DNA from: Minisyncoccota bacterium
Lineage (GTDB): Bacteria > Patescibacteriota > Minisyncoccia > Phycocordibacterales > WO2-35-19
DNA: 64,000 nucleotides
Assembly: GCA_041664625.1 (NCBI GenBank)
Contig: JBAYKK010000001.1
Location: 1,956-65,955, forward strand
Reading direction: 5' to 3'
Part shown: piece after piece, positions 13 to 44,271 of the stretch
Layout of the letters: every line of letters begins with the position of its first letter
How positions within the stretch are numbered: position 1 is the first letter of the stretch
Notes under the pieces: model-generated
The model's database searches: none
What the model saw: the letters and a program-made list of their open reading frames with translations, nothing else
Told to the model about the DNA's origin: nothing
Program-made: the position numbers and the translations under genes

Positions 13-72
13 TATAATTAAAGTCGCACTCTAGTCGACGTATCGTGCGACATGATTTCGCTAAATCATATG
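13..72 (+). promoter_or_regulatory. Conserved leader element, copy 1. It has a TATAAT box at 13-18, hairpin 1 (GTCGCAC 23-29 pairing GTGCGAC 45-51) and hairpin 2 (ATGATTT 52-58 pairing AAATCAT 63-69) directly abutting the ATG at 70.
   Basis: Perfect inverted repeats read directly. The same architecture recurs at 9782-9857 with a compensatory change in hairpin 2. Confidence 0.6.
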
Positions 73-2826
73 GAATACAAATTCCCACTACCAAAAATAC
101 CTTTTGAAAACACTGAGGATGAAATAACTCATTTGCGTAAATTGATTGCTGAAAAGGAAAAACATTTAGAAGATATTGGTTTAAAAAAAGAAGATCTTGC
201 GCCAGCCAGAGAAACTCTGGCACAATACAAAGCTGTTTCAGCAGGCAATACTCTCAGTCCTGGTTTTGAAATAAAAAAAGCTGACATAGAAAAAATAGTG
301 GTCAAACTTTCTCCAGAAGAGCACGACAAACAGATCAATGAGTTGGTCACTTTGGCCAAAGAAAAGGGCATCAAAAATGCTTTGGCAGTAGTAGAAAAAA
401 TGTCAAATTTTCATCTGACTGACGATTTCCATCGTTTTGTAGCTGAATATTTGAAAGAAGGCTTCACCATACCAGGTTTAAATATAAAAGAGAAAATTTC
501 TAAAGGCCTAGATATGGTTCTTTACGAAATCTTGATTCCAGAGGAAAGTAATAATGATAATGTCAAAAATACTCTGGAAGAAGTGATTTCTGGTATGGAG
601 CAGTTTTACGCTGGTATGCTTTCTATATCTGATTCTAACAAAGACGAAGGAAATTGGATGTCTTTGGAGATCGCCAATGCCAATTTTTCTCAAGAGATAA
701 TTTTTTATGTTGCGGTACCAAGTATAAGGAAAAATCTATTTGAAAAACAAATTCTTTCTATTTTTCACAATGCCAAAATCACCGAAAAACCCGATGATTA
801 TAATATTTTCAACGAGACCGGTGTGACGGTCGGAGTTTATGCTAAGTTTACCAAAAATCCGATTTACCCGATCAAAACATATGAAAGTTTTATTCACGAT
901 CCACTCAATGCGATGCTTTCTAGTTTTTCTAAGGTTAACCGAGACGGCGAAGGAGCCGCTATCCAACTTATTTGGTCGCCAGCCGGAGAAAAATACGTCA
1001 AAAGGTATAAAGGCGCTTTAGACAAAATCCAAAAAGGTGTGCCACTCAAAGAAGCTATTGATATTCCAGATAATTTTTCTGAAGATGTGGTGCATGTTTT
1101 TAAAGATTTTTTCTCATCGTCTTCTGATTCCAAAAATAAAGATGGTGTAGATAAAAAGCCAGAGCCAATTGATCAAAGCGCCGTAGCTGAAATAAACAAA
1201 AAAATATCAGCACCAATAGTCAGATGTAATTTAAGACTTTTAGCCTCGTCAAATACCAAAAATGAAGCCGAAGAAATATTGAGTAGCTTGAAATCTGGCT
1301 TCAATCAATTTGATAATACTTTGGGCAATGCTTTGGAATGGAAAAAAACTGACGGCGGTGATCTACGTAATTTAGTCAAAAATTTTAGCTTCAGGATTTT
1401 TGATGAGAGTTCTAGTTTGCCAATGAATTTAAGAGAGGTGACTTCAATAGTGCATTTCCACACCAAAGCTCTTTCGGCTTCCGAAGGTTTACGTCAATCC
1501 CGATCGGCTACTGCTCCAGCTCCGCTTGATATCGGTCAAGAAGGGCTACTTTTGGGTATAAATAAACACCGCAATATAGACACCGAAATAAAAATGGCAG
1601 AAGAAGATCGTTTGAGACACTTTTATTGCATCGGCCAGACTGGTACTGGTAAATCTACTTTGCTCAGAAAAATGATTATCCAAGATATCCAAATGGGCCA
1701 CGGAGTTTGTATGATCGATCCTCATGGTAATGATATCCAAGATGTTTTGGCAAGTGTACCACCCGAGAGATATGATGATGTTATCTATTTTGATCCGGCT
1801 TATACGCAGAGACCAATGGCTCTCAACATGTTGGAATTTGATGAAAATTTTCCTGAGCAAAAAACTTTTGTGGTCAATGAACTTTTCAGTATTTTTAGGA
1901 AACTATATGGCAACGTCCCCGAATCTATGGGCCCAGCTTTTGAGCAATATTTTAGAAACTCCGCTCTGCTTGTGATGGAAGACCCAGCTTCGGGTAACAC
2001 TTTGGTAGATATGTCGCGAGTGTTGTCAGACAAATCTTATCGAGATTTGAAAATGTCTAAATGCAAAAATCCTTTAGTCAAACAATTTTGGCTTAATGCC
2101 GAAAAAACCAGTGGTGATCAGGGACTGGCCAATTATGTGCAGTATGTGACCAACAAATTTGATGTATTTTTGGCCAACGAAATCATGCGTCCAGTCATAG
2201 CCCAAGAAAAATCTTCTTTCAATTTCCGCGACATCATGGATAACAAAAAGATTTTGTTGGTCAATCTTTCCAAAGGCAGACTAGGTGATATCAATGCCAA
2301 TTTGATCGGTTTGATTTTGGTGGGTAAGATTTTGATAGCCGCTCTTTCTCGTTCTGATTCTTTTGGTAAAGATTTCCCACCGTTTTATTTGTATATAGAT
2401 GAATTCCAAAACATTACTACCGATTCTATCGCTACTATTTTATCTGAAGCTCGCAAATACAAATTATCTTTAAATATTGCTCATCAGTTTATCGCTCAAT
2501 TGGAAGAAAACATCAAAGATGCAGTTTTTGGTAACGTAGGTTCTATCTGTGCTTTTAGAGTAGGAGCTGAAGATTCAGAAATTCTAGAAAAACAATTTAC
2601 CCCGACTTTTTCTAGTAGCGATTTGATGAATATAGATAATCTAAATGCTTATTTGAAACTTTTGGTAAATGGTAAGCCTGCCAAACCTTTTAATATTTTT
2701 GTACCATTTCCACCAAAAGGGGATTCTGTTCAGGCAGAAAAATTGAAAGAAATGTCTTATTTGAAATATGGTAAACCTCGCGAAGAAATAGAGAAATTGG
2801 TTTTGGAAAAATACAAAATAATATAA
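70..2826 (+). CDS. TraG/TraD/VirD4-like P-loop ATPase of the FtsK/HerA/T4CP superfamily, with a ~500 aa N-terminal domain of unknown function.
   Basis: Walker A 'GQTGTGKST' and a T4CP/HerA-like C-terminal half ('YLYIDEFQN', 'IAHQ'). The start is moved to ATG 70 because the ATG at 52 lies inside the conserved hairpin. Confidence 0.6.
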   Translation: MEYKFPLPKIPFENTEDEITHLRKLIAEKEKHLEDIGLKKEDLAPARETLAQYKAVSAGNTLSPGFEIKKADIEKIVVKLSPEEHDKQINELVTLAKEKGIKNALAVVEKMSNFHLTDDFHRFVAEYLKEGFTIPGLNIKEKISKGLDMVLYEILIPEESNNDNVKNTLEEVISGMEQFYAGMLSISDSNKDEGNWMSLEIANANFSQEIIFYVAVPSIRKNLFEKQILSIFHNAKITEKPDDYNIFNETGVTVGVYAKFTKNPIYPIKTYESFIHDPLNAMLSSFSKVNRDGEGAAIQLIWSPAGEKYVKRYKGALDKIQKGVPLKEAIDIPDNFSEDVVHVFKDFFSSSSDSKNKDGVDKKPEPIDQSAVAEINKKISAPIVRCNLRLLASSNTKNEAEEILSSLKSGFNQFDNTLGNALEWKKTDGGDLRNLVKNFSFRIFDESSSLPMNLREVTSIVHFHTKALSASEGLRQSRSATAPAPLDIGQEGLLLGINKHRNIDTEIKMAEEDRLRHFYCIGQTGTGKSTLLRKMIIQDIQMGHGVCMIDPHGNDIQDVLASVPPERYDDVIYFDPAYTQRPMALNMLEFDENFPEQKTFVVNELFSIFRKLYGNVPESMGPAFEQYFRNSALLVMEDPASGNTLVDMSRVLSDKSYRDLKMSKCKNPLVKQFWLNAEKTSGDQGLANYVQYVTNKFDVFLANEIMRPVIAQEKSSFNFRDIMDNKKILLVNLSKGRLGDINANLIGLILVGKILIAALSRSDSFGKDFPPFYLYIDEFQNITTDSIATILSEARKYKLSLNIAHQFIAQLEENIKDAVFGNVGSICAFRVGAEDSEILEKQFTPTFSSSDLMNIDNLNAYLKLLVNGKPAKPFNIFVPFPPKGDSVQAEKLKEMSYLKYGKPREEIEKLVLEKYKII

Positions 2827-9781: not shown

Positions 9782-9857
9782 CTGATATAATGAAAAGGAA
9801 ATAAGTCGCACTCCAAAGGACGGTATCGTGCGACACGATTTCGCAAAATCGCATATG
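9782..9857 (+). promoter_or_regulatory. Conserved leader element, copy 2. It has an extended -10 (cTGaTATAAT, 9783-9791), hairpin 1 (GTCGCAC 9805-9811 pairing GTGCGAC 9828-9834) and hairpin 2 (CGATTT 9836-9841 pairing AAATCG 9846-9851) abutting ATG 9855.
   Basis: Same architecture as 13-72. Hairpin 2 shows a T:A to C:G compensatory change. Confidence 0.6.
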
Positions 9858-10895
9858 CAAAATATCGCTCTCATAATTTTGGCAGTTGGGCTTTTGGTGG
9901 CGGTTTTTGCTTTGCTTAAAAGGAAACCCGACGAAAAATCAAACGATGGAGCTATGAAATTGCTTTTGGAACAAATGAATGAACTTTCCCGGACTATGGA
10001 TAGGAAAATGGGTGAGACTACTAAACAGGTTAACGAATCCATGAAGGACCAGTTTAGAGAATCTAGCAAACTCATCCGTGATGTGACAGAGGGTTTAACT
10101 AAGCTTGATGAGACCAACAAACAAGTTATTTCTTTTGCTGATCAACTCCAAAATTTGCAAGATATTTTGAAAAATCCCAAACAGCGGGGGATCCTCGGTG
10201 AGTATTACCTGGAAACACTACTCAAAAATGTTTTGGCACCAGCTCAATATCAAATGCAATATGCTTTTGTAAATGGTGAAATCGTGGATGCTGTGGTTTT
10301 TGTCAAAGATAAAGTTATACCGATTGATTCCAAATTTTCACTCGAGAATTATAATCGTTTGATTGGAGCCAAAGATCCAGCTGAAAAAGAACGACTAGAA
10401 AAACTTTTTATAAATGATTTGAAATTGCGTATTACTGAAACTTCAAAATACATTCGCCCAACCGAAGGTACAATGGATTTTGCTTTTATGTTTATCCCTC
10501 ACGAAGCTATTTATTATGATTTGCTTATAAATAAAATCGGAGCAGTGACAGAAGATACGGAAAATCTGATCCAAAGAGCGGCTGGCAAATATAAAGTGAT
10601 TATTGTCTCCCCGACCTCGTTTTTGGCATACCTCCAGACAGTTTTACAGGGTCTCAAAGCAATGCAAATAGAGGAGACAGCAAAAGATATAATAAAGAGA
10701 GTTGGGGAGCTTTCTGAGCACTTAAAAAAGTATGAAATGTATCATGGCAAACTCGGCAACTCATTGGAGACGGTGGTCAATCATTTCAATGCTTCTAGCA
10801 AAGAGTTTAAAAAGGTAGACAAAGATGTGGTGCGTATAACCGGTGTTTCTCAAGCTTTTGAAGTCCCTATTTTGGACAAGCCAGATATAGAATAA
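9855..10895 (+). CDS. rmuC: DNA recombination protein RmuC.
   Basis: N-terminal TM segment followed by a coiled coil and the RmuC core ('GEYYLETLL', 'IPIDSKF', 'FAFMFIP'). Start set to ATG 9855, downstream of the conserved leader. Confidence 0.8.
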   Translation: MQNIALIILAVGLLVAVFALLKRKPDEKSNDGAMKLLLEQMNELSRTMDRKMGETTKQVNESMKDQFRESSKLIRDVTEGLTKLDETNKQVISFADQLQNLQDILKNPKQRGILGEYYLETLLKNVLAPAQYQMQYAFVNGEIVDAVVFVKDKVIPIDSKFSLENYNRLIGAKDPAEKERLEKLFINDLKLRITETSKYIRPTEGTMDFAFMFIPHEAIYYDLLINKIGAVTEDTENLIQRAAGKYKVIIVSPTSFLAYLQTVLQGLKAMQIEETAKDIIKRVGELSEHLKKYEMYHGKLGNSLETVVNHFNASSKEFKKVDKDVVRITGVSQAFEVPILDKPDIE

Positions 10896-11086: not shown

Positions 11087-11527
11087 ATGCCAGTAGCCAA
11101 AAAAACCACAAAAAAAGAGGTAAAAACCACCCCAAAGGCTCCTTCTGCCCCCGCTAAAGCTATGGCGGACAAGAAGGTTGTAAAAGCTGAAAAAGTCGTC
11201 CCAAATGGCAGTTTTGCCGTTGTGGAGACTGGTGGTAAGCAATACCGAGTGGCTGTTGGCGAAACTATCAAAGTTGAAGCTATAAATGGGGAATTGAAAG
11301 AGGGAGATGCTGTAGTTTTTGATAAAGTCCTTTTGATTGACAATGGCACCGATTCTACTGACATTGGTACTCCTTATATCGCTGGTGCCAAAGTGACTGG
11401 TACTCTAGTTGAAATTGGCCGTAATGCTAAAGTCATCGTCATCAAATACAAACAAAAATCTCGTTATTTCAAGAAAAATGGCCATCGCCAACCTTTCTTT
11501 GCTGTCCGTATTGATAAAATTTCTTAA
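11087..11527 (+). CDS. rplU: 50S ribosomal protein L21 with a Lys/Ala-rich N-terminal extension.
   Basis: 'FAVVETGGKQYRVAVGETIKVE' matches the bL21 signature. Confidence 0.85.
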   Translation: MPVAKKTTKKEVKTTPKAPSAPAKAMADKKVVKAEKVVPNGSFAVVETGGKQYRVAVGETIKVEAINGELKEGDAVVFDKVLLIDNGTDSTDIGTPYIAGAKVTGTLVEIGRNAKVIVIKYKQKSRYFKKNGHRQPFFAVRIDKIS

Positions 11528-26658: not shown

Positions 26659-28263
26659 ATGAAAAATAAACTAACTATAGGAATCATTGCAGCCGTAGTC
26701 ATCATAGGTGGGATTGTCCTTGTACAAAGTCCGGACACTGGTAATAAAGTATTGGCTGGAAGTTTTTCTACTGATATAACCGGTCTGGCAGAAGCCAAAA
26801 CATCAGAGACTGTTGAGCTTAAAAACGGCGATACCTACGATCTCACGGCTTCAATTGTGAAGAAGATGATTGGCAACAGCGTGGTCAAAATGCTCGCCTA
26901 TAACGGCATGATTCCGGGACCCATGATTAAAGTGGAGCAAGGTGCGGAAGTAACACTCAATTTCACTAATAATACAGATGTTGACACCACGATTCATTCC
27001 CACGGAGTGCGACTTGATAATAAATTCGATGGCGTTCCAGACGTGACACAAAAAGAAGTTAAAACGGGCGAATCTTTCACTTATAAGGTCAAATTCCCTG
27101 ACGAGGGCATGTACTGGTATCACCCTCATATTCGAGAAGATTACGCACAGGAGCTTGGCCTTTACGGCAACTATCTTGTTACTCCCAATGATCCGAACTA
27201 CTGGTCTCCGGTCAATCGTGAAGTTGCGTTGTTCATAGACGACATCCTTATAGAAAACGGCAAGATTGCGACGTTTAGCAAAGCGTCTGCAGATCGCACG
27301 CTTATGGGCAGGTTCGGCAATACCATGCTTGTAAATGGCGAGATTGACTACACACTTCAAGCAAAAGCAGGAGAAGTAATCCGCTTCTATATCACGAACT
27401 CCGCGAATACAAGAACGTTTAATATCTCTATCCCCGGCGCAAAAATGAAACTTGTGGGAGCTGATGGCGGAAAATATGAACGCGAAACGTGGAGCGACGG
27501 TGTGGTTCTAGGCCCTTCTGAACGTACAATCGTTGAGGTGCTCTTTGCGAATTCCGGATCTTATATGCTTCAGCACAAAACTCCGAATCGTACTTATACA
27601 TTGGGAACGATTAATGTTACCAACGAGAAAGTAATTAATTCATTTGAGAAAGAGTTTGTGATACTACGTTCAAACAAAGACATGCAAGCGGAAATTGACG
27701 CATTCAGACCATTTTTCAATAAACCGGCAGATAAGCGTTTGAAGCTCACTATTGATATGGGTATGCAGATGCAGGGCATGATGCAAAACAATACCGGTGG
27801 CCACAATATGAATATGATGGGCGGCAATCAAATGATGCCCAACAGCGAAATGGTGGCTAGTGGCGATCCTATTGAGTGGGAGGAAAACAGTGCAACAATG
27901 AACGTTATGTCCAATTCTGAAATTATGAAATGGGTTATCCAAGACGAAGACACTGGCAAGAAAAATATGGATATTGATTGGAGCTTCAAAGTTGGCGACA
28001 AAGTTAAAATCAAAATCACCAACGATCCGAAGTCCGTGCACCCAATGCAACACCCTATTCACTTCCACGGCCAACGTTTTTTAGTACTTTCAACAAACGG
28101 CAAACCGAACGATAATCTTGTGTGGAAAGATACTACTCTAATCCCAAACGGAGATACAGTTGAACTTCTTGTTGAAATGACAAATCCAGGTGAATGGATG
28201 GCACACTGCCACATTGCCGAGCATTTGGAGGCAAGCATGATGTTTGGTTTTAAGGTTAATTAA
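26659..28263 (+). CDS. Multicopper oxidase with a Met-rich insert.
   Basis: 'HSHG', 'WYHPH', C-terminal 'HCHIAEHLEASMM', and the Met-rich 'MGMQMQGMMQ...MNMMGGNQMM'. Confidence 0.85.
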   Translation: MKNKLTIGIIAAVVIIGGIVLVQSPDTGNKVLAGSFSTDITGLAEAKTSETVELKNGDTYDLTASIVKKMIGNSVVKMLAYNGMIPGPMIKVEQGAEVTLNFTNNTDVDTTIHSHGVRLDNKFDGVPDVTQKEVKTGESFTYKVKFPDEGMYWYHPHIREDYAQELGLYGNYLVTPNDPNYWSPVNREVALFIDDILIENGKIATFSKASADRTLMGRFGNTMLVNGEIDYTLQAKAGEVIRFYITNSANTRTFNISIPGAKMKLVGADGGKYERETWSDGVVLGPSERTIVEVLFANSGSYMLQHKTPNRTYTLGTINVTNEKVINSFEKEFVILRSNKDMQAEIDAFRPFFNKPADKRLKLTIDMGMQMQGMMQNNTGGHNMNMMGGNQMMPNSEMVASGDPIEWEENSATMNVMSNSEIMKWVIQDEDTGKKNMDIDWSFKVGDKVKIKITNDPKSVHPMQHPIHFHGQRFLVLSTNGKPNDNLVWKDTTLIPNGDTVELLVEMTNPGEWMAHCHIAEHLEASMMFGFKVN

Positions 28264-34042: not shown

Positions 34043-34105
34043 AGAATAACATGTGACGTTTTCATATTAATAGTCCTGTCCGAGCAATTGGATGGGGCTA
34101 TTATC

Positions 34106-35935
34106 TCAAAACTCTCCCAAAATTCCTTTCAATTTAGTCTCATGGTCTCGAATACCAGCATCGTCTGGTTCAATTGAATCAATATCGATAATAAAATTAT
34201 CCTCAAAATGCAGGATCTCTTTTTGCTTGAAAATGCCACGTCTAGTTTTCTTTAGGTCATCTTTGGCTGCGTTGGTAGCGATCAAAATCGATTCGTTATA
34301 TAGCCTAATACAATCCTTTAAAAATTGTATCCTCTCGGCCACATGATAGGTAAAATCGGTCTCGTAAATTTTGACTAGTCTCTTGAATAGTTTTTCAAAA
34401 GCCAAAAGAGCGGCATAATTTTTAATCAGATTTTCTCGTCTTTCCTTAAACAATTTGTAAATCTGTTGGCTCCTGAACTTTATGATCGCTTTTCCATCCT
34501 CCCGCTCCTCTTTAAACACAGATTGTCCCTTGTGAATATTTGAGAGAAGGGTGATTGAGAGACCATAAACACTGAAAATATTTGGTTCACCCTTGCCGTT
34601 GTGGTCGCAGATAAGAAATTCTCTGTCCAGGTTTTCTCCATTTTCAGGATCGTCATTGGTATAAACGATGCCTAGATTTGGATCATATTTATCTGTTCTT
34701 TCTCTGAATTCTTTAACGAATTTGTAATCTGCTTTTAAATTATATAAACTTTTGCCAGTTATGACAGAGCCATCAAATGTCTCAAAGCATACTCTTTCGT
34801 CGGCTTCGCACTTAATTGGTTCGAGGCCGGCATTCTCCAGAACTTTGCGAGCGTTTTCAAGCTCTTTGTCGTATAAACCTTTGCTGTACAATTTTTCATT
34901 TCTGGTTTCTCTCTCGCTTCTCTCGCTCAATTTCAATTCTCCTTTTTTGACGTGATCTAGTAAAATTTTTCTGGCTTCCTTTTTAATCTCAAGCCACCTT
35001 TGGAAAAGATCGAAGCTATTACTCAAAACAAGAGGGGTATAGTCATCAAAGAGCCCATCATCGAACCACTTGAGGCAAGCTTCCTTTAGCATAGCTTTTA
35101 TATTTGTGTCGTTTTTGGTCGCGTACTCTTCCATTAGTTTAGAGACCTCTTCGTAGGTATTGCTCTGCTCATCATCAGCTTCTTGATTTTGAGACATGGA
35201 CTTGCCCTTAATTTCAATTCCCTTGTCTTTCAAAAAATATCTGGCAACTTCGGTCAGAGGGATGCAAGCGAAATAATGATAGAGCTGGTATTCGTGGGCA
35301 AATTTGTTGTAACTTTGCTCAGCCACCAGCTCTGCCAGTTTTTCTTTGCCGTCTTGGTTGAGTTCATCTTTGTCGCCAAAGAGATTGGCGATAATTTCCT
35401 CTTGATCTAAATACTGGTGGTCATATTCAATTTCAACATACAGCTCCTTAAGTTGCTCTTTTTCCGCTTCACTTAATCTTTCGAGAGCTAGTTGGTACAC
35501 AGCATAATCAAAATCAATTCCTTCTCGCAGCTTCATTTGTTTTTGCTTTTCGGCAATTTCCGCGGCTTCTTCAATGGTGACCATCTTTGTGCTCTTCAGG
35601 TTTTCGATGTACCTTTTCATTTCTCGGTGAGCTGGATATTGGGCCATGTCGGTAAGAATGGGAAGTTGAGCAAGGTATGCGGTCTGGCCGTCTTTGAAAT
35701 GGAATTCGACTTCGATTTCCATCCTACCTACATGTTTCCAGCCTTCATTCATACGGTTCCACTCTTTGGCTTCCCAGTTCTCTTTTGACTCCCAATTTTC
35801 AAGAGCCGCTTTATCGGCAGGAGTGAGAGATTCTTTTCCCGTTCTTTCTCTTTGGATGTCGTTTTGAATGAGGAGAATATACCTCTCCTTTGGAGTTAAG
35901 TTACTTCGGCCCAACATATTTGAAATATTTTTCAT
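34106..35935 (-). CDS. Large hypothetical protein (609 aa), Glu/Lys-rich with coiled-coil character.
   Basis: Long ORF with no P-loop or other recognisable motif. Confidence 0.5.
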   Translation of the reverse strand: MKNISNMLGRSNLTPKERYILLIQNDIQRERTGKESLTPADKAALENWESKENWEAKEWNRMNEGWKHVGRMEIEVEFHFKDGQTAYLAQLPILTDMAQYPAHREMKRYIENLKSTKMVTIEEAAEIAEKQKQMKLREGIDFDYAVYQLALERLSEAEKEQLKELYVEIEYDHQYLDQEEIIANLFGDKDELNQDGKEKLAELVAEQSYNKFAHEYQLYHYFACIPLTEVARYFLKDKGIEIKGKSMSQNQEADDEQSNTYEEVSKLMEEYATKNDTNIKAMLKEACLKWFDDGLFDDYTPLVLSNSFDLFQRWLEIKKEARKILLDHVKKGELKLSERSERETRNEKLYSKGLYDKELENARKVLENAGLEPIKCEADERVCFETFDGSVITGKSLYNLKADYKFVKEFRERTDKYDPNLGIVYTNDDPENGENLDREFLICDHNGKGEPNIFSVYGLSITLLSNIHKGQSVFKEEREDGKAIIKFRSQQIYKLFKERRENLIKNYAALLAFEKLFKRLVKIYETDFTYHVAERIQFLKDCIRLYNESILIATNAAKDDLKKTRRGIFKQKEILHFEDNFIIDIDSIEPDDAGIRDHETKLKGILGEF

Positions 35936-36171
35936 ATTTTTCTCTTTTTTAACATCTGTTCAAGAAATTCGACCCGGTCTTTGAGGTCTCTGACTTCTAT
36001 AAGTTTAGATAACGCCAAAGCCAAGCGGGAAATAGTGGCTGCCCGACGCAAAGAAGTTTTTCTCTCAGCCACATCCTGCAAAGTCTCTGAAAGAATGGCT
36101 GCCGCCTCTTCAGCACTCATGTAATTTTTCTTTTGTAAATCTTTTTCGTCCATATTTTTACATTCCTTCAA
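35932..36171 (-). CDS. Hypothetical small protein.
   Basis: ORF in the same orientation as its neighbours, with overlapping stop and start codons. Confidence 0.35.
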   Translation of the reverse strand: MKECKNMDEKDLQKKNYMSAEEAAAILSETLQDVAERKTSLRRAATISRLALALSKLIEVRDLKDRVEFLEQMLKKRKI

Positions 36172-36547
36172 TTATTTCCATCCAAGCTTTGACCTCGGCA
36201 GCCCTGCCGGTTTTGGTAGCTTCGCGATACAGAGCAGAGACGACATTTGGAGTTAGCTTCTTGGCCCAGGAATGGATAGATTTCATAAGGCCACCTGATT
36301 TCTCAATCCTCTTGTTCCATTCGGAAAGAGTGCCCAAATCCTTGATTCCAAACTTCTTGGCAAACTCTGTTTGGTTTTTAATTTCCAAAAGAGACATCGC
36401 CAGCTCGTCATCCACACCCAATTTTTCGACCACATGCCTCGGCTGTCCGCGCAGGATAGAAGGCATCGATCGCCAAAGAACATAGGATTCAAATTCCTGT
36501 TTTTTGTAGATGGTCGCATATTTTGAGTTATCATCCTCGTCTGGCAT
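36158..36547 (-). CDS. Hypothetical protein, possibly a phage small-terminase or HTH-like protein.
   Basis: ORF. The resemblance is weak. Confidence 0.3.
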   Translation of the reverse strand: MPDEDDNSKYATIYKKQEFESYVLWRSMPSILRGQPRHVVEKLGVDDELAMSLLEIKNQTEFAKKFGIKDLGTLSEWNKRIEKSGGLMKSIHSWAKKLTPNVVSALYREATKTGRAAEVKAWMEIIEGM

Positions 36548-36557
36548 ATAACTTGGG

Positions 36558-37340
36558 TCATTTTAAAATTTCAGCTTTTTTGTCGCTGAGTTTCTCCCAC
36601 CTTTCGACTATGGTGTTGCAATACGACTCCTCCATCTCAATCGCAAAACACCTTCGACCAAGATGTTCGCAAGCGATCAAAGTTGAACCCGATCCGGCAA
36701 ATGGATCAAAAACTATATCTTCTGGCTTGGTACTGTGGTATACGAGGCGACGCAATAGAGCCGGTGGCTTCATGGTTGGATGCAACTTGCTTTTGTGTGG
36801 TTTGGGATAGAAGAGGGCGGTTTTGTCTCGGTTACCGAAATATTCGTGCCTGCCGTACCAGCCATATATGATGAGCTCATGTTGGGGATGAAAATCTTTG
36901 CGGCCGACTATGTGATTGTTTTTAAGCCAAATGAGAAGAGAGGATTTGGTGTAGCTAGTGTCGTGTAGAGCATTCAAAAGTTCTCGCAACTTCATGTCAC
37001 TGTTGAAAATATAGAAGGCATTTTTGTCTTTAAGATATGGCCTCATCGGTTCAAGCCATTTTTTACAAAAACTATAATAATCCTGCTCAACCTCGTCTCC
37101 TTTTATGGCCGAGAATTTTTGATTGCTATTATCCTTATGAATTTTCTCCAAAAATTCCTGCTTGCCTTCGACGTAGCCAACTCCGTACGGGGGATCTGTT
37201 AAAACCAGAGTCGCTTTTTCTTTTTCAAAAAGCTGTTTTACATCCTCCACTTTTGTAGAGTCTCCAAGCATGAGCCTGTGCTCACCAAGTTTCCAGATTT
37301 TAGTTAAGTTTTTTTGCATGGTTGCCGGTGAAATGCTCAT
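36558..37340 (-). CDS. DNA methyltransferase of the N6-adenine/N4-cytosine class.
   Basis: 'LVLTDPPYGVGY' (motif IV) and 'FDPFAGSGST' (motif I). Confidence 0.8.
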   Translation of the reverse strand: MSISPATMQKNLTKIWKLGEHRLMLGDSTKVEDVKQLFEKEKATLVLTDPPYGVGYVEGKQEFLEKIHKDNSNQKFSAIKGDEVEQDYYSFCKKWLEPMRPYLKDKNAFYIFNSDMKLRELLNALHDTSYTKSSLLIWLKNNHIVGRKDFHPQHELIIYGWYGRHEYFGNRDKTALFYPKPHKSKLHPTMKPPALLRRLVYHSTKPEDIVFDPFAGSGSTLIACEHLGRRCFAIEMEESYCNTIVERWEKLSDKKAEILK

Positions 37341-38562
37341 AACGTCGAATGATGAGGTCGCAAAATGTCGGGTCGAGTTCGACCAAAAACGCTCGCCGCT
37401 TTAACTGCTCTGCCGCAATTAAGGTACTGCCACTGCCACCGAAGAGATCGAGGATAATTTCGCCGGGAGCAGAGCATCTTTTTATTGGTTTCTCATTTAA
37501 GGTAATTGGCTTTTGAGTTGGATGCTCGTAATCAGCAGAGTTGTCTCTCTTTACCAGCCAGAGTTGGACAATGCTCATGAGATCATCGTATAGGCCGATT
37601 GAGTTCACTTCTTTGTTTAGAACTTCGGATAGATTTTTAAGAGCCGGATTCAGAGAGGGAGTGCCTCGAGTGCCGTAAATGCAGGGCTCGATGACTTTGT
37701 TAAAAGCTACTTGTGGTGTTGGGTCAAAGTTATTTTTAACCCAAAAACAAATTCGGCGGTTGGTGACTTTATTCTGCCCGTAAAGTTGCTGGATTAGCCA
37801 GACATATTTTTCGTCACACCAGTAGAAGAGGTGGACATCGGGGTGGCTTACTGCTAGAGCATTTTGTATCGACTGTTCCAAAAATGTCTCGTACTCCTTG
37901 GCACTCTTGCTGTCATTCACCATTTTTTCAGGCGTATATTTTCCTTTGGAGCCAATGCCTTTTCTATAGTCCAAACCAATGTTATATGGTGGATCGCAGT
38001 ACACCATATTGGCTTTGTGCTCTCCCATGAGCTTCTGCACATTTTTCAAATCAAGGCAGTCTCCACAAAGAAGTCTGTGGTCTCCAAGTTCATACAGGTC
38101 GCCTGGCTTGCTTTCAGGAGTGACAATTTTTTCGAGTTCCTCTGCAACATTAAAATCGTCGTCTGTTATATCTAACACATCATCAAAAAATCCGTTAAGC
38201 TCGTCGGGAGTGAAGCCGACATCAAGGAGAAGGCCGGTATCAAAAGCTCTTAAAAGTTCCTCATCCCAGCTGCCCAAATTTTTGTTGAGCCGTAGGTTTA
38301 ACTCCTGCTCTCGCTCAAGCTCTGGAATAATGAGGTATACAACAGGCACTTCTGTAAAGCCCATCATTTTGGCGACCTTAAGGCGAAGGTGACCACCGAT
38401 CAGGATATTTTTTCTTTCTGGCGCACCATTCACTATTAGGGGATCGCATAGGCCAAATCGCTTTATACTCTCGGTCATATCGGCGATTGTTTTCTCATTC
38501 CATTTTCTGGGATTGTAGACCGAGGGTTTTAATTCACTCACTTTAACTTGTTCTATTTTCAT
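37300..38562 (-). CDS. ParB-like nuclease domain fused to a DNA methyltransferase.
   Basis: N-terminal ParB/Srx fold ('IGGHLRL'), then 'DPPYNIGLDY' and 'LDLFGGSGST'. Confidence 0.8.
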   Translation of the reverse strand: MKIEQVKVSELKPSVYNPRKWNEKTIADMTESIKRFGLCDPLIVNGAPERKNILIGGHLRLKVAKMMGFTEVPVVYLIIPELEREQELNLRLNKNLGSWDEELLRAFDTGLLLDVGFTPDELNGFFDDVLDITDDDFNVAEELEKIVTPESKPGDLYELGDHRLLCGDCLDLKNVQKLMGEHKANMVYCDPPYNIGLDYRKGIGSKGKYTPEKMVNDSKSAKEYETFLEQSIQNALAVSHPDVHLFYWCDEKYVWLIQQLYGQNKVTNRRICFWVKNNFDPTPQVAFNKVIEPCIYGTRGTPSLNPALKNLSEVLNKEVNSIGLYDDLMSIVQLWLVKRDNSADYEHPTQKPITLNEKPIKRCSAPGEIILDLFGGSGSTLIAAEQLKRRAFLVELDPTFCDLIIRRYEHFTGNHAKKLN

Positions 38563-38638
38563 AAAATTGGGTTAATTTTTAATTGTTTCTTTAATAATGC
38601 TTACTTGCGACATATAGTAACTATTTTAGGCAAAAAAA

Positions 38639-39172
38639 TTAGAATGATATCCCGGGCATCATGCGGAAGGGTAAATCGAGGTGTTCAAGCTGAATCCTGG
38701 CTACTGGTTTGGACACTCGGAACAATTTGGCGATGTCTTCAACAAATGGAAATGGTTCGTATTGATACACGTTTCTAACTGCCGGTTCCGGCATCAAAAT
38801 ATCCCCGGCAAAGCGGTCGCAGAGTCTCTCTACCCAACTATCATTGTCATCGGAATGGTACATTATGGCTGGTTCATTTGGAACGAGTACAATGTGAGCC
38901 AGTTCATGAGCGGCGGAGAATCTTTGCCTGACGATGCTTTCGTTTCCGTTAAGTATGATGAACCAACCTCTCTCCATGTCTCGGGTAGAGAAGGCGGAGA
39001 CTCCTTTCTCGAATGGAAAATCGGTCCTCGAGTGAACTTCTGCATCGCCCAAGTACTTGGTTATAACCTCCTTGATCACCACCGGAAGATTCAAAGATTC
39101 GCCATATACCTCTTTCAGTATCGCGTTGGCTTTATATTTAGAAACGTTTTTCCATTGCTCCGGGATCTCCAT
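38639..39172 (-). CDS. ImmA/IrrE-family metallopeptidase.
   Basis: 'AAHELAHIVL' HExxH motif in the DUF955 context. Confidence 0.7.
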   Translation of the reverse strand: MEIPEQWKNVSKYKANAILKEVYGESLNLPVVIKEVITKYLGDAEVHSRTDFPFEKGVSAFSTRDMERGWFIILNGNESIVRQRFSAAHELAHIVLVPNEPAIMYHSDDNDSWVERLCDRFAGDILMPEPAVRNVYQYEPFPFVEDIAKLFRVSKPVARIQLEHLDLPFRMMPGISF

Positions 39173-39178
39173 TGTCTT

Positions 39179-39520
39179 TTACTTAACTTTTAATTCCTTC
39201 TTGAGGTAGCCGATATAGTTTTCCACCATTTTCGACTGCTCCTCATTGAAGTTGTATTTGGCTCGGAGGAAGGTCGGGGTATCGGCCGATTTGATATAAT
39301 CCTCTTGAGTGATGCCCGCTTTGTTCAAAATGAATTCAAGCGGCTCACTTAACCCATCAGCTATTTTTCTTAATGTACTTACCGAGGGTGACTCATCTGG
39401 GTACTCACCTTGCTCTAAGCGGGAAATGTAGCCTCTGGTTAAACCAGAATTTTCGGCCAATTTCTCCTGCGTTAGTTCCTTATCCTCGCGCAAACTTTTT
39501 ATGACCTCAGCTAATTTCAT
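39179..39520 (-). CDS. XRE-family helix-turn-helix transcriptional regulator.
   Basis: 'QEKLAENSGLTRGYISRLEQGE'. Confidence 0.8.
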   Translation of the reverse strand: MKLAEVIKSLREDKELTQEKLAENSGLTRGYISRLEQGEYPDESPSVSTLRKIADGLSEPLEFILNKAGITQEDYIKSADTPTFLRAKYNFNEEQSKMVENYIGYLKKELKVK

Positions 39521-39849
39521 ATTTTTTCCTATTATTACTTTTCTATTCTAAGTCGACTGGAGATAGTATAGCATAAGTCGCTAAGATGTGAAGTATAGTT
39601 ACTATAAAAGTTGTGGATAACTGATTGTTTTTCATATCACAAAACAGAATTTAGCATTTGTCCAGAAAACCCAAAAGAATTTTGGCCTGTGCCAAAGTAC
39701 CTTTATTTTGCTTCATTTTCCGAATTTACTCTTTCACAGATTTGGCATTGTTTGGGTTTTCAAGACCCCGACCCGAACACTTCAATTCCACTTCTGGAAA
39801 TGTGCTAAAATACCCTTATGGTTACTAACCTAATGGGTACTTAACCCGA

Positions 39850-39925
39850 ATACACCGCCTTCGGTCCGCAGTAGCAGACCTTCGGCGTGACGAAGTCCGC
39901 CAGAAGGGGTGCGAAGGCGACCTTA
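39850..39925 (+). other. GC-rich multi-stem element directly upstream of the GIY-YIG gene.
   Basis: CGCCTTCG at 39861 pairs with CGAAGGCG at 39912, and an inner hairpin GACCTTCG-gcgtga-CGAAGTC sits between them. Confidence 0.35.
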
Positions 39926-39931
39926 GCCAAA

Positions 39932-40165
39932 ATGAATTACGTATACTCACTAAAATGCAAAGACGGCTTCTACATAGGATGTACTAATGATTTGAAAGAC
40001 AGAATCAAAAGACACGAAGCAGGACAGGTTGGTGCAACAAAAGATAGATTGCCTATTGAATTAGATTTTTATATAGCTCTTGATAATCAATACAAGGCCT
40101 TCAACTTCGAAAAATATTTGAAATCTGGTTCGGGTAGGACTTTTATAAAAAAGCATTTTGTTTAA
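39932..40165 (+). CDS. GIY-YIG nuclease-family protein.
   Basis: 'YVYSLKCKDGFYIGCTNDLKDRIKRH'. Confidence 0.7.
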   Translation: MNYVYSLKCKDGFYIGCTNDLKDRIKRHEAGQVGATKDRLPIELDFYIALDNQYKAFNFEKYLKSGSGRTFIKKHFV

Positions 40166-40250
40166 AAAACATAAAATTATGATTCCAATTTTGATGTAAA
40201 AAAGAGCCGCCCAGAGAGCGACGGCTCTCCGAGGCGGCGTTTGTGAAGAA

Positions 40251-44199: not shown

Positions 44200-44271
44200 G
44201 ACAAGGTAGCTCATCGGTAGAGCACCGCTATCACATAGCGGAGGTAGTGGGTTCAATTCCTACCCTTGTTA
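44200..44271 (+). tRNA. tRNA-Val (anticodon CAC).
   Basis: Hand fold: acceptor GACAAGG/CCTTGTT with a G1-U72 pair, anticodon stem CCGCT/AGCGG with loop ATCACAT, and T-loop TTCAATT. Confidence 0.75.

Follow-up and report, generated by a model that had tools for sequence, protein, structure and literature searches.

The leader of Escherichia coli rpsA, about 90 nucleotides (nt) long, folds into three hairpins with GGA-type motifs in its apical loops; it has no Shine-Dalgarno (SD) sequence, is autoregulated and supports efficient initiation. The hairpin that E. coli ompA carries in its 5′ untranslated region (UTR) and the leaders of Bacillus subtilis aprE and ermC are 5′-terminal stem-loops that act as stabilisers. 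In phage T4 genes 38 and 25 the ribosome-binding site is split, with a hairpin placed between the AUG and a purine motif upstream of it. Here we describe a leader of about 50 nt that occurs twice in a 64,000-nt stretch of DNA from a Minisyncoccota bacterium (assembly GCA_041664625.1, contig JBAYKK010000001.1, positions 1,956 to 65,955; hereafter the window), once before a gene for a HerA/TraG-like ATPase and once before rmuC. Both copies are members of an abundant family of structured 5′ leaders in Patescibacteria, within the Parcubacteria/Paceibacteria-type candidate phyla radiation (CPR). The family is undescribed and belongs to the known class of structured cis-acting 5′ UTRs. No Rfam 15 family lies at either window copy at gathering threshold; at E values up to 10, the best overlapping matches reach 10–17 bits against cut-offs of 38–60. 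Nor does any Rfam family lie at the leaders of 12 further loci. An earlier note on this DNA had recognised no described element in it, and our searches of the openly accessible literature found no description of the leader either.

The closest analogues are the SD-less rpsA leader, the 5′ stabiliser hairpins and leaderless mRNAs. The CPR leader resembles that of rpsA in its consecutive hairpins within a 5′ UTR, its lack of a canonical SD sequence and the GGA-type motifs in apical loops. It differs in being shorter, in standing before dozens of unrelated genes per genome rather than a single one, in ending at the AUG and in having no sequence or Rfam similarity to it. With the stabilisers it has portability between genes in common and, from its predicted transcription starts, would also share a stable hairpin within a few bases of the 5′ end, with an expected block to 5′-end-dependent RNases. 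These, however, are not sequence-conserved families and have an ordinary SD sequence downstream, whereas the CPR leader conserves a loop and a second hairpin across a phylum-level group, with no SD sequence. Leaderless mRNAs occur in the same organisms with the same type of promoter and SD-free initiation, and orthologs alternate between the two forms; the leader nevertheless adds some 50 structured nt, so that recognition of a 5′-terminal AUG cannot apply as such. Unlike all these systems, it combines one conserved fold, many unrelated genes, an end at the start codon and the absence of any SD signal.

The two copies span positions 21–72 and 9803–9857 of the window, each ending at an ATG, and comprise the following features, all on the forward strand, with lengths in base pairs (bp) or amino acids (aa).

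13–18, + strand: −10 box TATAAT of copy 1, read from the sequence, 4 nt 5′ of hairpin 1
23–51, + strand: hairpin 1 of copy 1, 7-bp stem GUCGCAC (23–29) with GUGCGAC (45–51), 15-nt loop
33–40, + strand: loop motif AGUCGACG in hairpin 1 of copy 1, the conserved apical motif of the family
52–69, + strand: hairpin 2 of copy 1, 7-bp A/U-rich stem AUGAUUU (52–58) with AAAUCAU (63–69)
59–62, + strand: loop CGCU of hairpin 2, copy 1
70–72, + strand: start codon ATG of copy 1, with 0 bases between it and hairpin 2
70–2826, + strand: gene for a HerA/TraG-like P-loop ATPase of 918 aa (DUF87, TraG-D_C, DUF8128), served by copy 1
9783–9791, + strand: extended −10 box TGaTATAAT of copy 2, read from the sequence, 13 nt 5′ of hairpin 1
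9805–9834, + strand: hairpin 1 of copy 2, stem 9805–9811 with 9828–9834, 16-nt loop
9815–9822, + strand: loop motif AAAGGACG in hairpin 1 of copy 2, the conserved apical motif of the family
9835, + strand: linker of copy 2, one A between the hairpins
9836–9851, + strand: hairpin 2 of copy 2, 6-bp stem CGAUUU (9836–9841) with AAAUCG (9846–9851), loop CGCA
9855–9857, + strand: start codon ATG of copy 2, with three bases, CAU, between it and hairpin 2
9855–10895, + strand: rmuC, 346 aa (PF02646, E 4e-52), served by copy 2

The earlier note had described a nearly identical two-hairpin element before the ATPase gene and rmuC, with a perfect 7-bp hairpin 1 around a loop of 15 or 16 nt, and both copies are indeed there in that form. 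Two of its details hold for one copy each. The TG extension that it gave to both −10 boxes is present in copy 2 and missing from copy 1; conversely, hairpin 2 abuts the start codon in copy 1, where it begins right after hairpin 1 and ends at base −1 of the ATG, but not in copy 2, where CAU intervenes. In copy 1 the linker is A52, which can alternatively pair as the first base of hairpin 2; the two hairpins are contiguous there, and their coaxial stacking is possible. A search for GTCGCAC-N10-22-GTGCGAC matched the window at these two places only, and none of 100 shuffles. Scans of the window with nhmmer and a covariance model returned the same two copies only (E about 1e-15 to 1e-19), the remaining weaker matches lying on the reverse strand or at 27007 on the minus strand; this last, a candidate third copy, is a chance match of 12 nt within coding sequence. 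The predicted folds have minimum free energies (MFE) of −17.5 kcal/mol for copy 1 (z −2.9) and −15.6 kcal/mol for copy 2 (z −1.4).

Mechanically called open reading frames (ORFs) cross the element in both places, from ATG52, within hairpin 2, in copy 1 and from GTG9828 in copy 2. As the reading frame through the conserved block differs between the copies, its conservation is not coding. The ATPase gene starts at ATG70 and not at the in-frame ATG52; ATG70 is backed by public gene calls, which give the 918-aa form, and by the position of the start codon throughout the family. Just 5′ of the window (locus L041, 7565–7600), between a DUF378 gene and copy 1, lies a long hairpin of the form A-tract/stem/T-tract, reading AAAAAACAAAATAGCTCC-GTCT-GGAGCTATTTTGTTTTTT, which looks like a bidirectional terminator. 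A simple terminator scanner missed it, as its T-run belongs to the stem. Since this putative terminator of the upstream gene precedes it, copy 1 would start its own transcription unit. An attenuator, which the earlier note had considered, is contradicted by the leader itself: no U-tract follows either hairpin, and the scanner lists no terminator at copy 2.

Further copies were sought in related genomes, as the earlier note had proposed, by scanning one genome per species for GTCGCAC-N12-20-GTGCGACANGATTT. The scan gave 40 loci, 31 in Patescibacteria assemblies and 9 in other phyla. The latter are chance matches, G+C-rich and devoid of hairpin 2. The 31 Patescibacteria loci hold 33 further copies under this strict pattern, up to six or seven per assembly, and at all 31 the match extends into the same hairpin 2. 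Their hosts are labelled Zambryskibacteria, Nomurabacteria, Taylorbacteria and Paceibacterota, with some assemblies labelled Saccharibacteria. A covariance model built from 32 copies detected additional ones outside the strict pattern. A second scan, of metagenomes, was anchored on hairpin 2 plus ATG only and left the arms of hairpin 1 free except for the closing C; it found at least 120 loci, mostly from groundwater. Matches at the metagenome loci are often near contig ends, assemblies frequently breaking at the leader. In a viral contig collection we found chance matches to hairpin 2 of 15–22 bits only and no real copy, and a phage signal is rejected for that collection.

The pairing of the leader is under constraint of the RNA type. 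We tallied covariation on 100 distinct copies from the metagenome scan, with 500 shuffles and slid controls. Overall, 98.4% of cells are paired and double changes occur in 9 of 13 pairs; none of the 500 shuffles reaches these values, and the slid controls pair at 22–46%. In hairpin 1, 97% of cells are paired and six of the seven pairs show double compensatory changes, as at position 2 (U:A 53, C:G 35), position 6 (G:C 71, A:U 17) and position 7 (C:G 68, U:A 21). At least 25 distinct arm pairs are genuine, out of 43 that include several A/T-rich false positives let in by the loose anchor. A single Zambryskibacteria contig (L022) carries three versions of the arms, GTCGCAC/GTGCGAC, GTCGCGC/GCGCGAC and GCCGTCC/GGACGGC. 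The T:A to C:G double change that the earlier note had seen in hairpin 2 of copy 2 is real and recurs independently in L009 and L039 (UA 28, CG 3, CA 1); where the search pattern did not fix it, hairpin 2 also takes the forms GAUUC/GAAUC and GAUCC/GGAUC. The covariation is thus far stronger than the single pair from which that note had argued for selection on structure, and the sequences indicate that base pairing, rather than the sequence of the arms, is selected. Only two independent hairpins are predicted; no conserved, mutually exclusive pairing was seen among the copies.

In contrast to the arms, the apical loop of hairpin 1 is conserved in sequence. Across the family the loop measures 12–17 nt and displays a single-stranded motif, AAWNGACG, whose last four positions are conserved at 100% (G), 97% (A), 95% (C) and 88% (G), and whose preceding AA is conserved at 84–89%. 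Such conservation of unpaired bases implies a sequence-specific partner. The loop contains GGA in about 60% of copies and NGAC in the remainder. The drawing that suits it best has a Y-G pair closing an apical loop of 7 nt. This closing pair is the only consistent one; within the loop there is no convincing covariation, and no pseudoknot with the loop of hairpin 2. As in the split sites of phage T4, a hairpin could bring a purine motif to the AUG, some loops reading AAAGGAGG or AAAGGA; however, GGA is not universal in the CPR loops, and GGACG is not a ribosome-binding motif elsewhere in these genomes. We rejected GGACG as a lineage-specific variant of the SD sequence: once the leaders are removed it is depleted (4 versus 10), its apparent 5-fold enrichment was due to leaders in which an upstream ATG, in frame with the gene, had been counted as the start codon.

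Some leaders are nested, the loop of hairpin 1 being replaced by a second complete unit of hairpin 1 plus hairpin 2, which gives a predicted three-way junction. Several of them precede EF-Tu genes. Their predicted MFE is −31 to −36 kcal/mol, with z about −4.

L052:302–390, − strand: long nested leader
L056:1384–1470, − strand: long nested leader
L121:4040–4133, + strand: long nested leader
L075, L081, L104, L105, L127, L151, L156, L160 and L162: further nested leaders

The leader is locked in register to start codons. It lies on the same strand as the downstream gene in all copies. An ATG stands 1–5 nt past the stem in 32 of the 35 copies from the genome scan and the window, and an ORF of 50–918 aa follows each of the 37 ATG-ending copies examined (32 plus 5 from the covariance model). 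The distance from the end of the leader to the AUG ranges from 0 to 4 nt and is 0–1 nt in about 90% of copies. Among the distinct metagenome copies, 108 of 117 have behind them an ORF that either reaches 50 aa or runs off the contig; for random ATGs the share is 30%.

The genes so marked belong to at least 40 unrelated families in related genomes. By Pfam they include, for translation and RNA, EF-Tu, EF-G, L2, S19, L24, L31, PNPase, NusA and RsmH; for central metabolism, GAPDH, pyruvate kinase, TIM, PPDK, adenylate kinase (Adk), acetate kinase (AckA) and SHMT; for the envelope and secretion, type IV pilin, PilM, TatA and LemA; and, besides these, SOD, NUDIX, a response regulator, an XRE regulator, rmuC and the HerA-like ATPase. 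At L020:1153–2274 the adjacent rplB (L2) and rpsS (S19) genes each have their own leader, with a terminator-like hairpin between them, which points to a break-up of the classical S10 operon into units of one gene each in that lineage. The DNA retrieved for related loci contains a single rmuC ortholog (L084, 55% identity), and this one lacks the leader: it begins with a GTG 6 nt after a TATAAT (L084:600–700) and reads as leaderless with a non-AUG start. Its divergent neighbour yqeY, in turn, carries a leader (234–285, minus strand). Because the gene set is so diverse, and because the rmuC ortholog is leaderless while yqeY has the leader, the leader is a gene-independent module and not the mark of a DNA-metabolism regulon.

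This gene set bears on two further proposals of the earlier note. Co-regulation of a DNA translocase with a recombination protein does not survive it, the same leader preceding so many unrelated families. A gene-specific riboswitch is unlikely, since the genes behind the leader range from translation and glycolysis to pili, secretion, DNA repair and regulators, although its conserved loop could still bind something. Riboswitches and the autoregulatory leaders of ribosomal-protein genes do resemble the CPR leader in having a covarying 5′ UTR structure by the start codon, and some copies precede ribosomal-protein genes; the differences are the lack of an Rfam match, a gene set unrelated to one ligand or protein and the absence of a conserved switching helix.

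The same data allow us to weigh whether the leader could be a selfish small repeat, akin to miniature inverted-repeat transposable elements or repetitive extragenic palindromes, with an outward promoter, spread through intergenic regions and without dedicated function. Its multiple copies, sporadic at orthologous genes, the nesting of copies within the loops of others and the frequent breaks of assemblies at it would suit such a repeat. We nevertheless hold this explanation to be highly improbable, as we saw neither terminal inverted repeats nor flanking target duplications, and the leader has a single orientation in exact register with a genuine start codon and is absent from the viral contigs. 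It has also been kept with compensatory changes at EF-Tu and ribosomal-protein genes across lineages, which points to long-term purifying selection.

A few copies stand apart from this pattern. An orphan at L024:3025–3075 (minus strand) has compensated changes in both hairpins, no ATG and a strong terminator-like hairpin directly after it, and is possibly a leader-derived small RNA. Other leaders precede tiny, very basic ORFs of 18–20 aa (MAKGDGHRKEKKKPKKAK), at L056:1336–1389 (−), L086:1010–1069 (−) and L073:158–217 (+). In L056, roughly 1 kb separates this leader and its tiny ORF from the 5′ end of a downstream 16S ribosomal RNA (rRNA) gene (Rfam match, L056 1–344).

That neither window copy has an SD sequence, as the earlier note had pointed out, is correct, and the same holds throughout the genome. 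An SD-like 4-mer lies upstream of 8 of the 77 window ORFs, which equals the random expectation of 0.10, and GGAG upstream of 3 of 23 genes in the public gene calls for the window genome. Upstream of 993 leader-free ORFs of related contigs the enriched words are −10 boxes, not SD words, and the dominant signal is a −10 box 6–7 nt before the ATG. Between hairpin 2 and the AUG, no SD motif is found in the leader copies. An SD signal is essentially absent from these contigs and, it appears, from the host lineage, in which many mRNAs would be leaderless. In the window genome (including L041 1–20423), several genes have a −10 box 5–8 nt before the ATG and seem to be leaderless, among them PPDK_N (L041 3994) and L21 (window position 11087). 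The 3′ end of 16S rRNA is absent from 1.09 Mb of related DNA, which contains a 5′ fragment only, that in L056. Tsurumaki et al. (2022) could not detect the anti-SD motif in about half of Parcubacteria, and noted that translation initiation in those without it is unexplained (PMC9297842).

An RNA thermometer, suggested by the earlier note, would, if of the ROSE or fourU kind, need features that the leader lacks: it has no SD sequence to hide, and its AUG lies outside hairpin 2, 0–4 nt 3′ of it. Thermal melting of the A/U-rich stem of hairpin 2 is possible, as is global control by the leader that depends on a trans-acting factor or on temperature.

The prevalence of leaderless starts also invites the idea of a processing signal, an endonuclease cut or self-cleavage just before the AUG that would yield a leaderless mRNA, apparently the favoured form for these ribosomes, much as tRNAs punctuate mitochondrial mRNAs. 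The position of the leader end, mostly 0–1 nt before the AUG, agrees with this. Several copies, among them window copy 2, have instead 3–4 nt there, so that a cut would leave no 5′-terminal AUG; moreover, the leader resembles no ribozyme or RNase P/Z substrate family in Rfam and has no 3′-CCA-like or tRNA-like architecture. We therefore judge processing to be improbable.

Promoter positions suggest where the RNA begins. Among the ATGs that open ORFs of at least 60 aa, a peak of 107 stands 6 nt after the −10 hexamer, with 59 at 7 nt and a background of about 30; it is the mark expected of leaderless mRNAs whose transcription begins canonically, at the 7th base. In front of the leaders, stringent −10 hexamers cluster 3–7 nt before the first stem base (34 copies): 18 copies have 3 nt, 6–7 have 4 nt and 10 have 5–7 nt, and a small second group stands 12–13 nt from hairpin 1. 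Because of this clustering, and because copy 1 follows a putative terminator, we infer that the leader lies at or very near the mRNA 5′ end. With the canonical spacing taken from the leaderless peak, transcription of copy 2 is predicted to start near 9798–9799, leaving a 5′ tail of 6–7 nt. For −10 boxes 3–7 nt away, the predicted starts range from stem position 4 to the base just before the stem.

We propose, at roughly even odds (a probability of about 0.5), that the leader is a generic structured 5′ UTR that would confer mRNA stability and SD-independent initiation. It would be transcribed from a −10 promoter a few bases upstream, and the G+C-rich 7-bp hairpin 1 would fold at or next to the mRNA 5′ end, its apical loop displaying AAWNGACG; the A/U-rich hairpin 2, of 6–7 bp, would follow directly and end 0–4 nt before the AUG. 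At the 5′ terminus, hairpin 1 may shield the transcript from 5′-end-dependent decay. For initiation without an SD sequence, the AUG may be marked and presented by the compact fold together with the conserved loop and the weak hairpin 2, probably through a conserved partner, either the ribosome or a protein, and coaxial stacking of the two hairpins could set the 5′ end beside the AUG. In a lineage where SD sequences are nearly absent and many mRNAs appear leaderless, such a leader could serve as a portable, gene-independent expression module.

Several points weigh against this proposal. The function is read from the anatomy of the leader. A hairpin ending at base −1 should hinder binding of the 30S subunit unless it is melted or docked on the platform. 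With the leader on 2 of about 70 window genes, it is not a general route of initiation, and its sequence conservation, which exceeds the needs of simple stabilisation, is compatible with a regulatory partner as well. Two further points weigh most against reading the leader as RNA. The commonest −10 spacing, 3 nt, would place the start at stem position 4 of hairpin 1 and keep just 4 of its 7 bp in the RNA. In addition, the strand signature typical of RNA is missing from the stems, where G-U wobbles number 12 and A-C mismatches 16; we rejected this asymmetry as a proof of RNA, the counts not being informative.

The same two observations are the sole support for a role at the DNA level, as a repressor site or as a G+C-rich discriminator that would tune promoter kinetics: with a −10 box most often 3 nt away the repeat covers the predicted start, and the mismatch counts are symmetric. 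To this may be added the G+C-rich 5′ arm within an AT-rich genome. Against such a role, the leader is strictly strand-specific and locked to the ATG, while the −10 box stands anywhere between 3 and more than 13 nt away from it; the loop can take up whole extra hairpins; and hairpin 2 covaries too. The LexA-type operator named by the earlier note is excluded because the arms covary, differing within one genome yet remaining complementary, as no sequence-specific dimer could follow, and because their spacing varies between 12 and 17 nt. Covariation, variable spacing and the lock to the ATG thus contradict a DNA-level element, which we find quite improbable.

Two other explanations are less probable than the proposed generic leader but more so than those above. 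The first, which we entertain only tentatively, is that the leader is a bacterial ribosome-recruitment structure, comparable to an internal ribosome entry site (IRES), which replaces SD pairing in Parcubacteria without the anti-SD motif. The AAWNGACG loop and the start-proximal helix would then dock on the platform of the 30S subunit, for example near the lineage-conserved helix h26, and so place the adjacent AUG in the P site.

The second is a global regulatory leader, through which a single factor acting in trans, be it an RNA-binding protein, a small RNA, a small ligand or temperature, would switch a large set of growth-related genes together, in the manner of the eukaryotic 5′ terminal oligopyrimidine (5′TOP)/LARP1 system or of CsrA. 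The leader would then serve control and not be a constitutive signal for expression. The strongly conserved, single-stranded AAWNGACG argues for a specific partner, and many targets do fall in translation and central metabolism, such as EF-Tu, EF-G, ribosomal proteins, GAPDH and pyruvate kinase. The weak hairpin 2 beside the AUG could serve as an on/off helix. GGA in a hairpin loop is, in general, the recognition feature of the CsrA type. Yet only about 60% of the loops contain it, and rmuC, the HerA-like ATPase, NUDIX, LemA, pilins and XRE regulators share no theme. Orthologs switch freely between leader and leaderless forms, there is no conserved alternative pairing that could act as an anti-hairpin, and the partner is postulated. 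We consider global regulation possible but doubtful. Conceptually, the 5′TOP motif and the trypanosome spliced leader resemble the present family in that many mRNAs share a single 5′ element, with enrichment on genes of the translation machinery; the CPR leader differs in being encoded separately at each gene instead of being added through trans-splicing, in being structured rather than a pyrimidine tract, and in being bacterial.

Elsewhere in the window, a minus-strand block at 34100–40200 looks, from N-terminal sequences only, like a pair of ParB-like nuclease and methyltransferase genes with an XRE-type regulator, and may be a mobile or defence island. Genes for tRNA-Val lie at 44200 and 47718.

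For the study of these uncultured genomes, the leader pins true start codons in annotation, as with ATG70 rather than ATG52, and flags transcription units that are likely to be well expressed. As a 50-nt repeat it is able to fragment assemblies, and as a portable expression element it may find use in a future genetics of Patescibacteria. It is, moreover, a concrete candidate for part of the way in which CPR bacteria without the anti-SD motif start translation. If the IRES-like explanation were true, the leader would represent a third mode of bacterial initiation, beside the SD-led and the leaderless ones.

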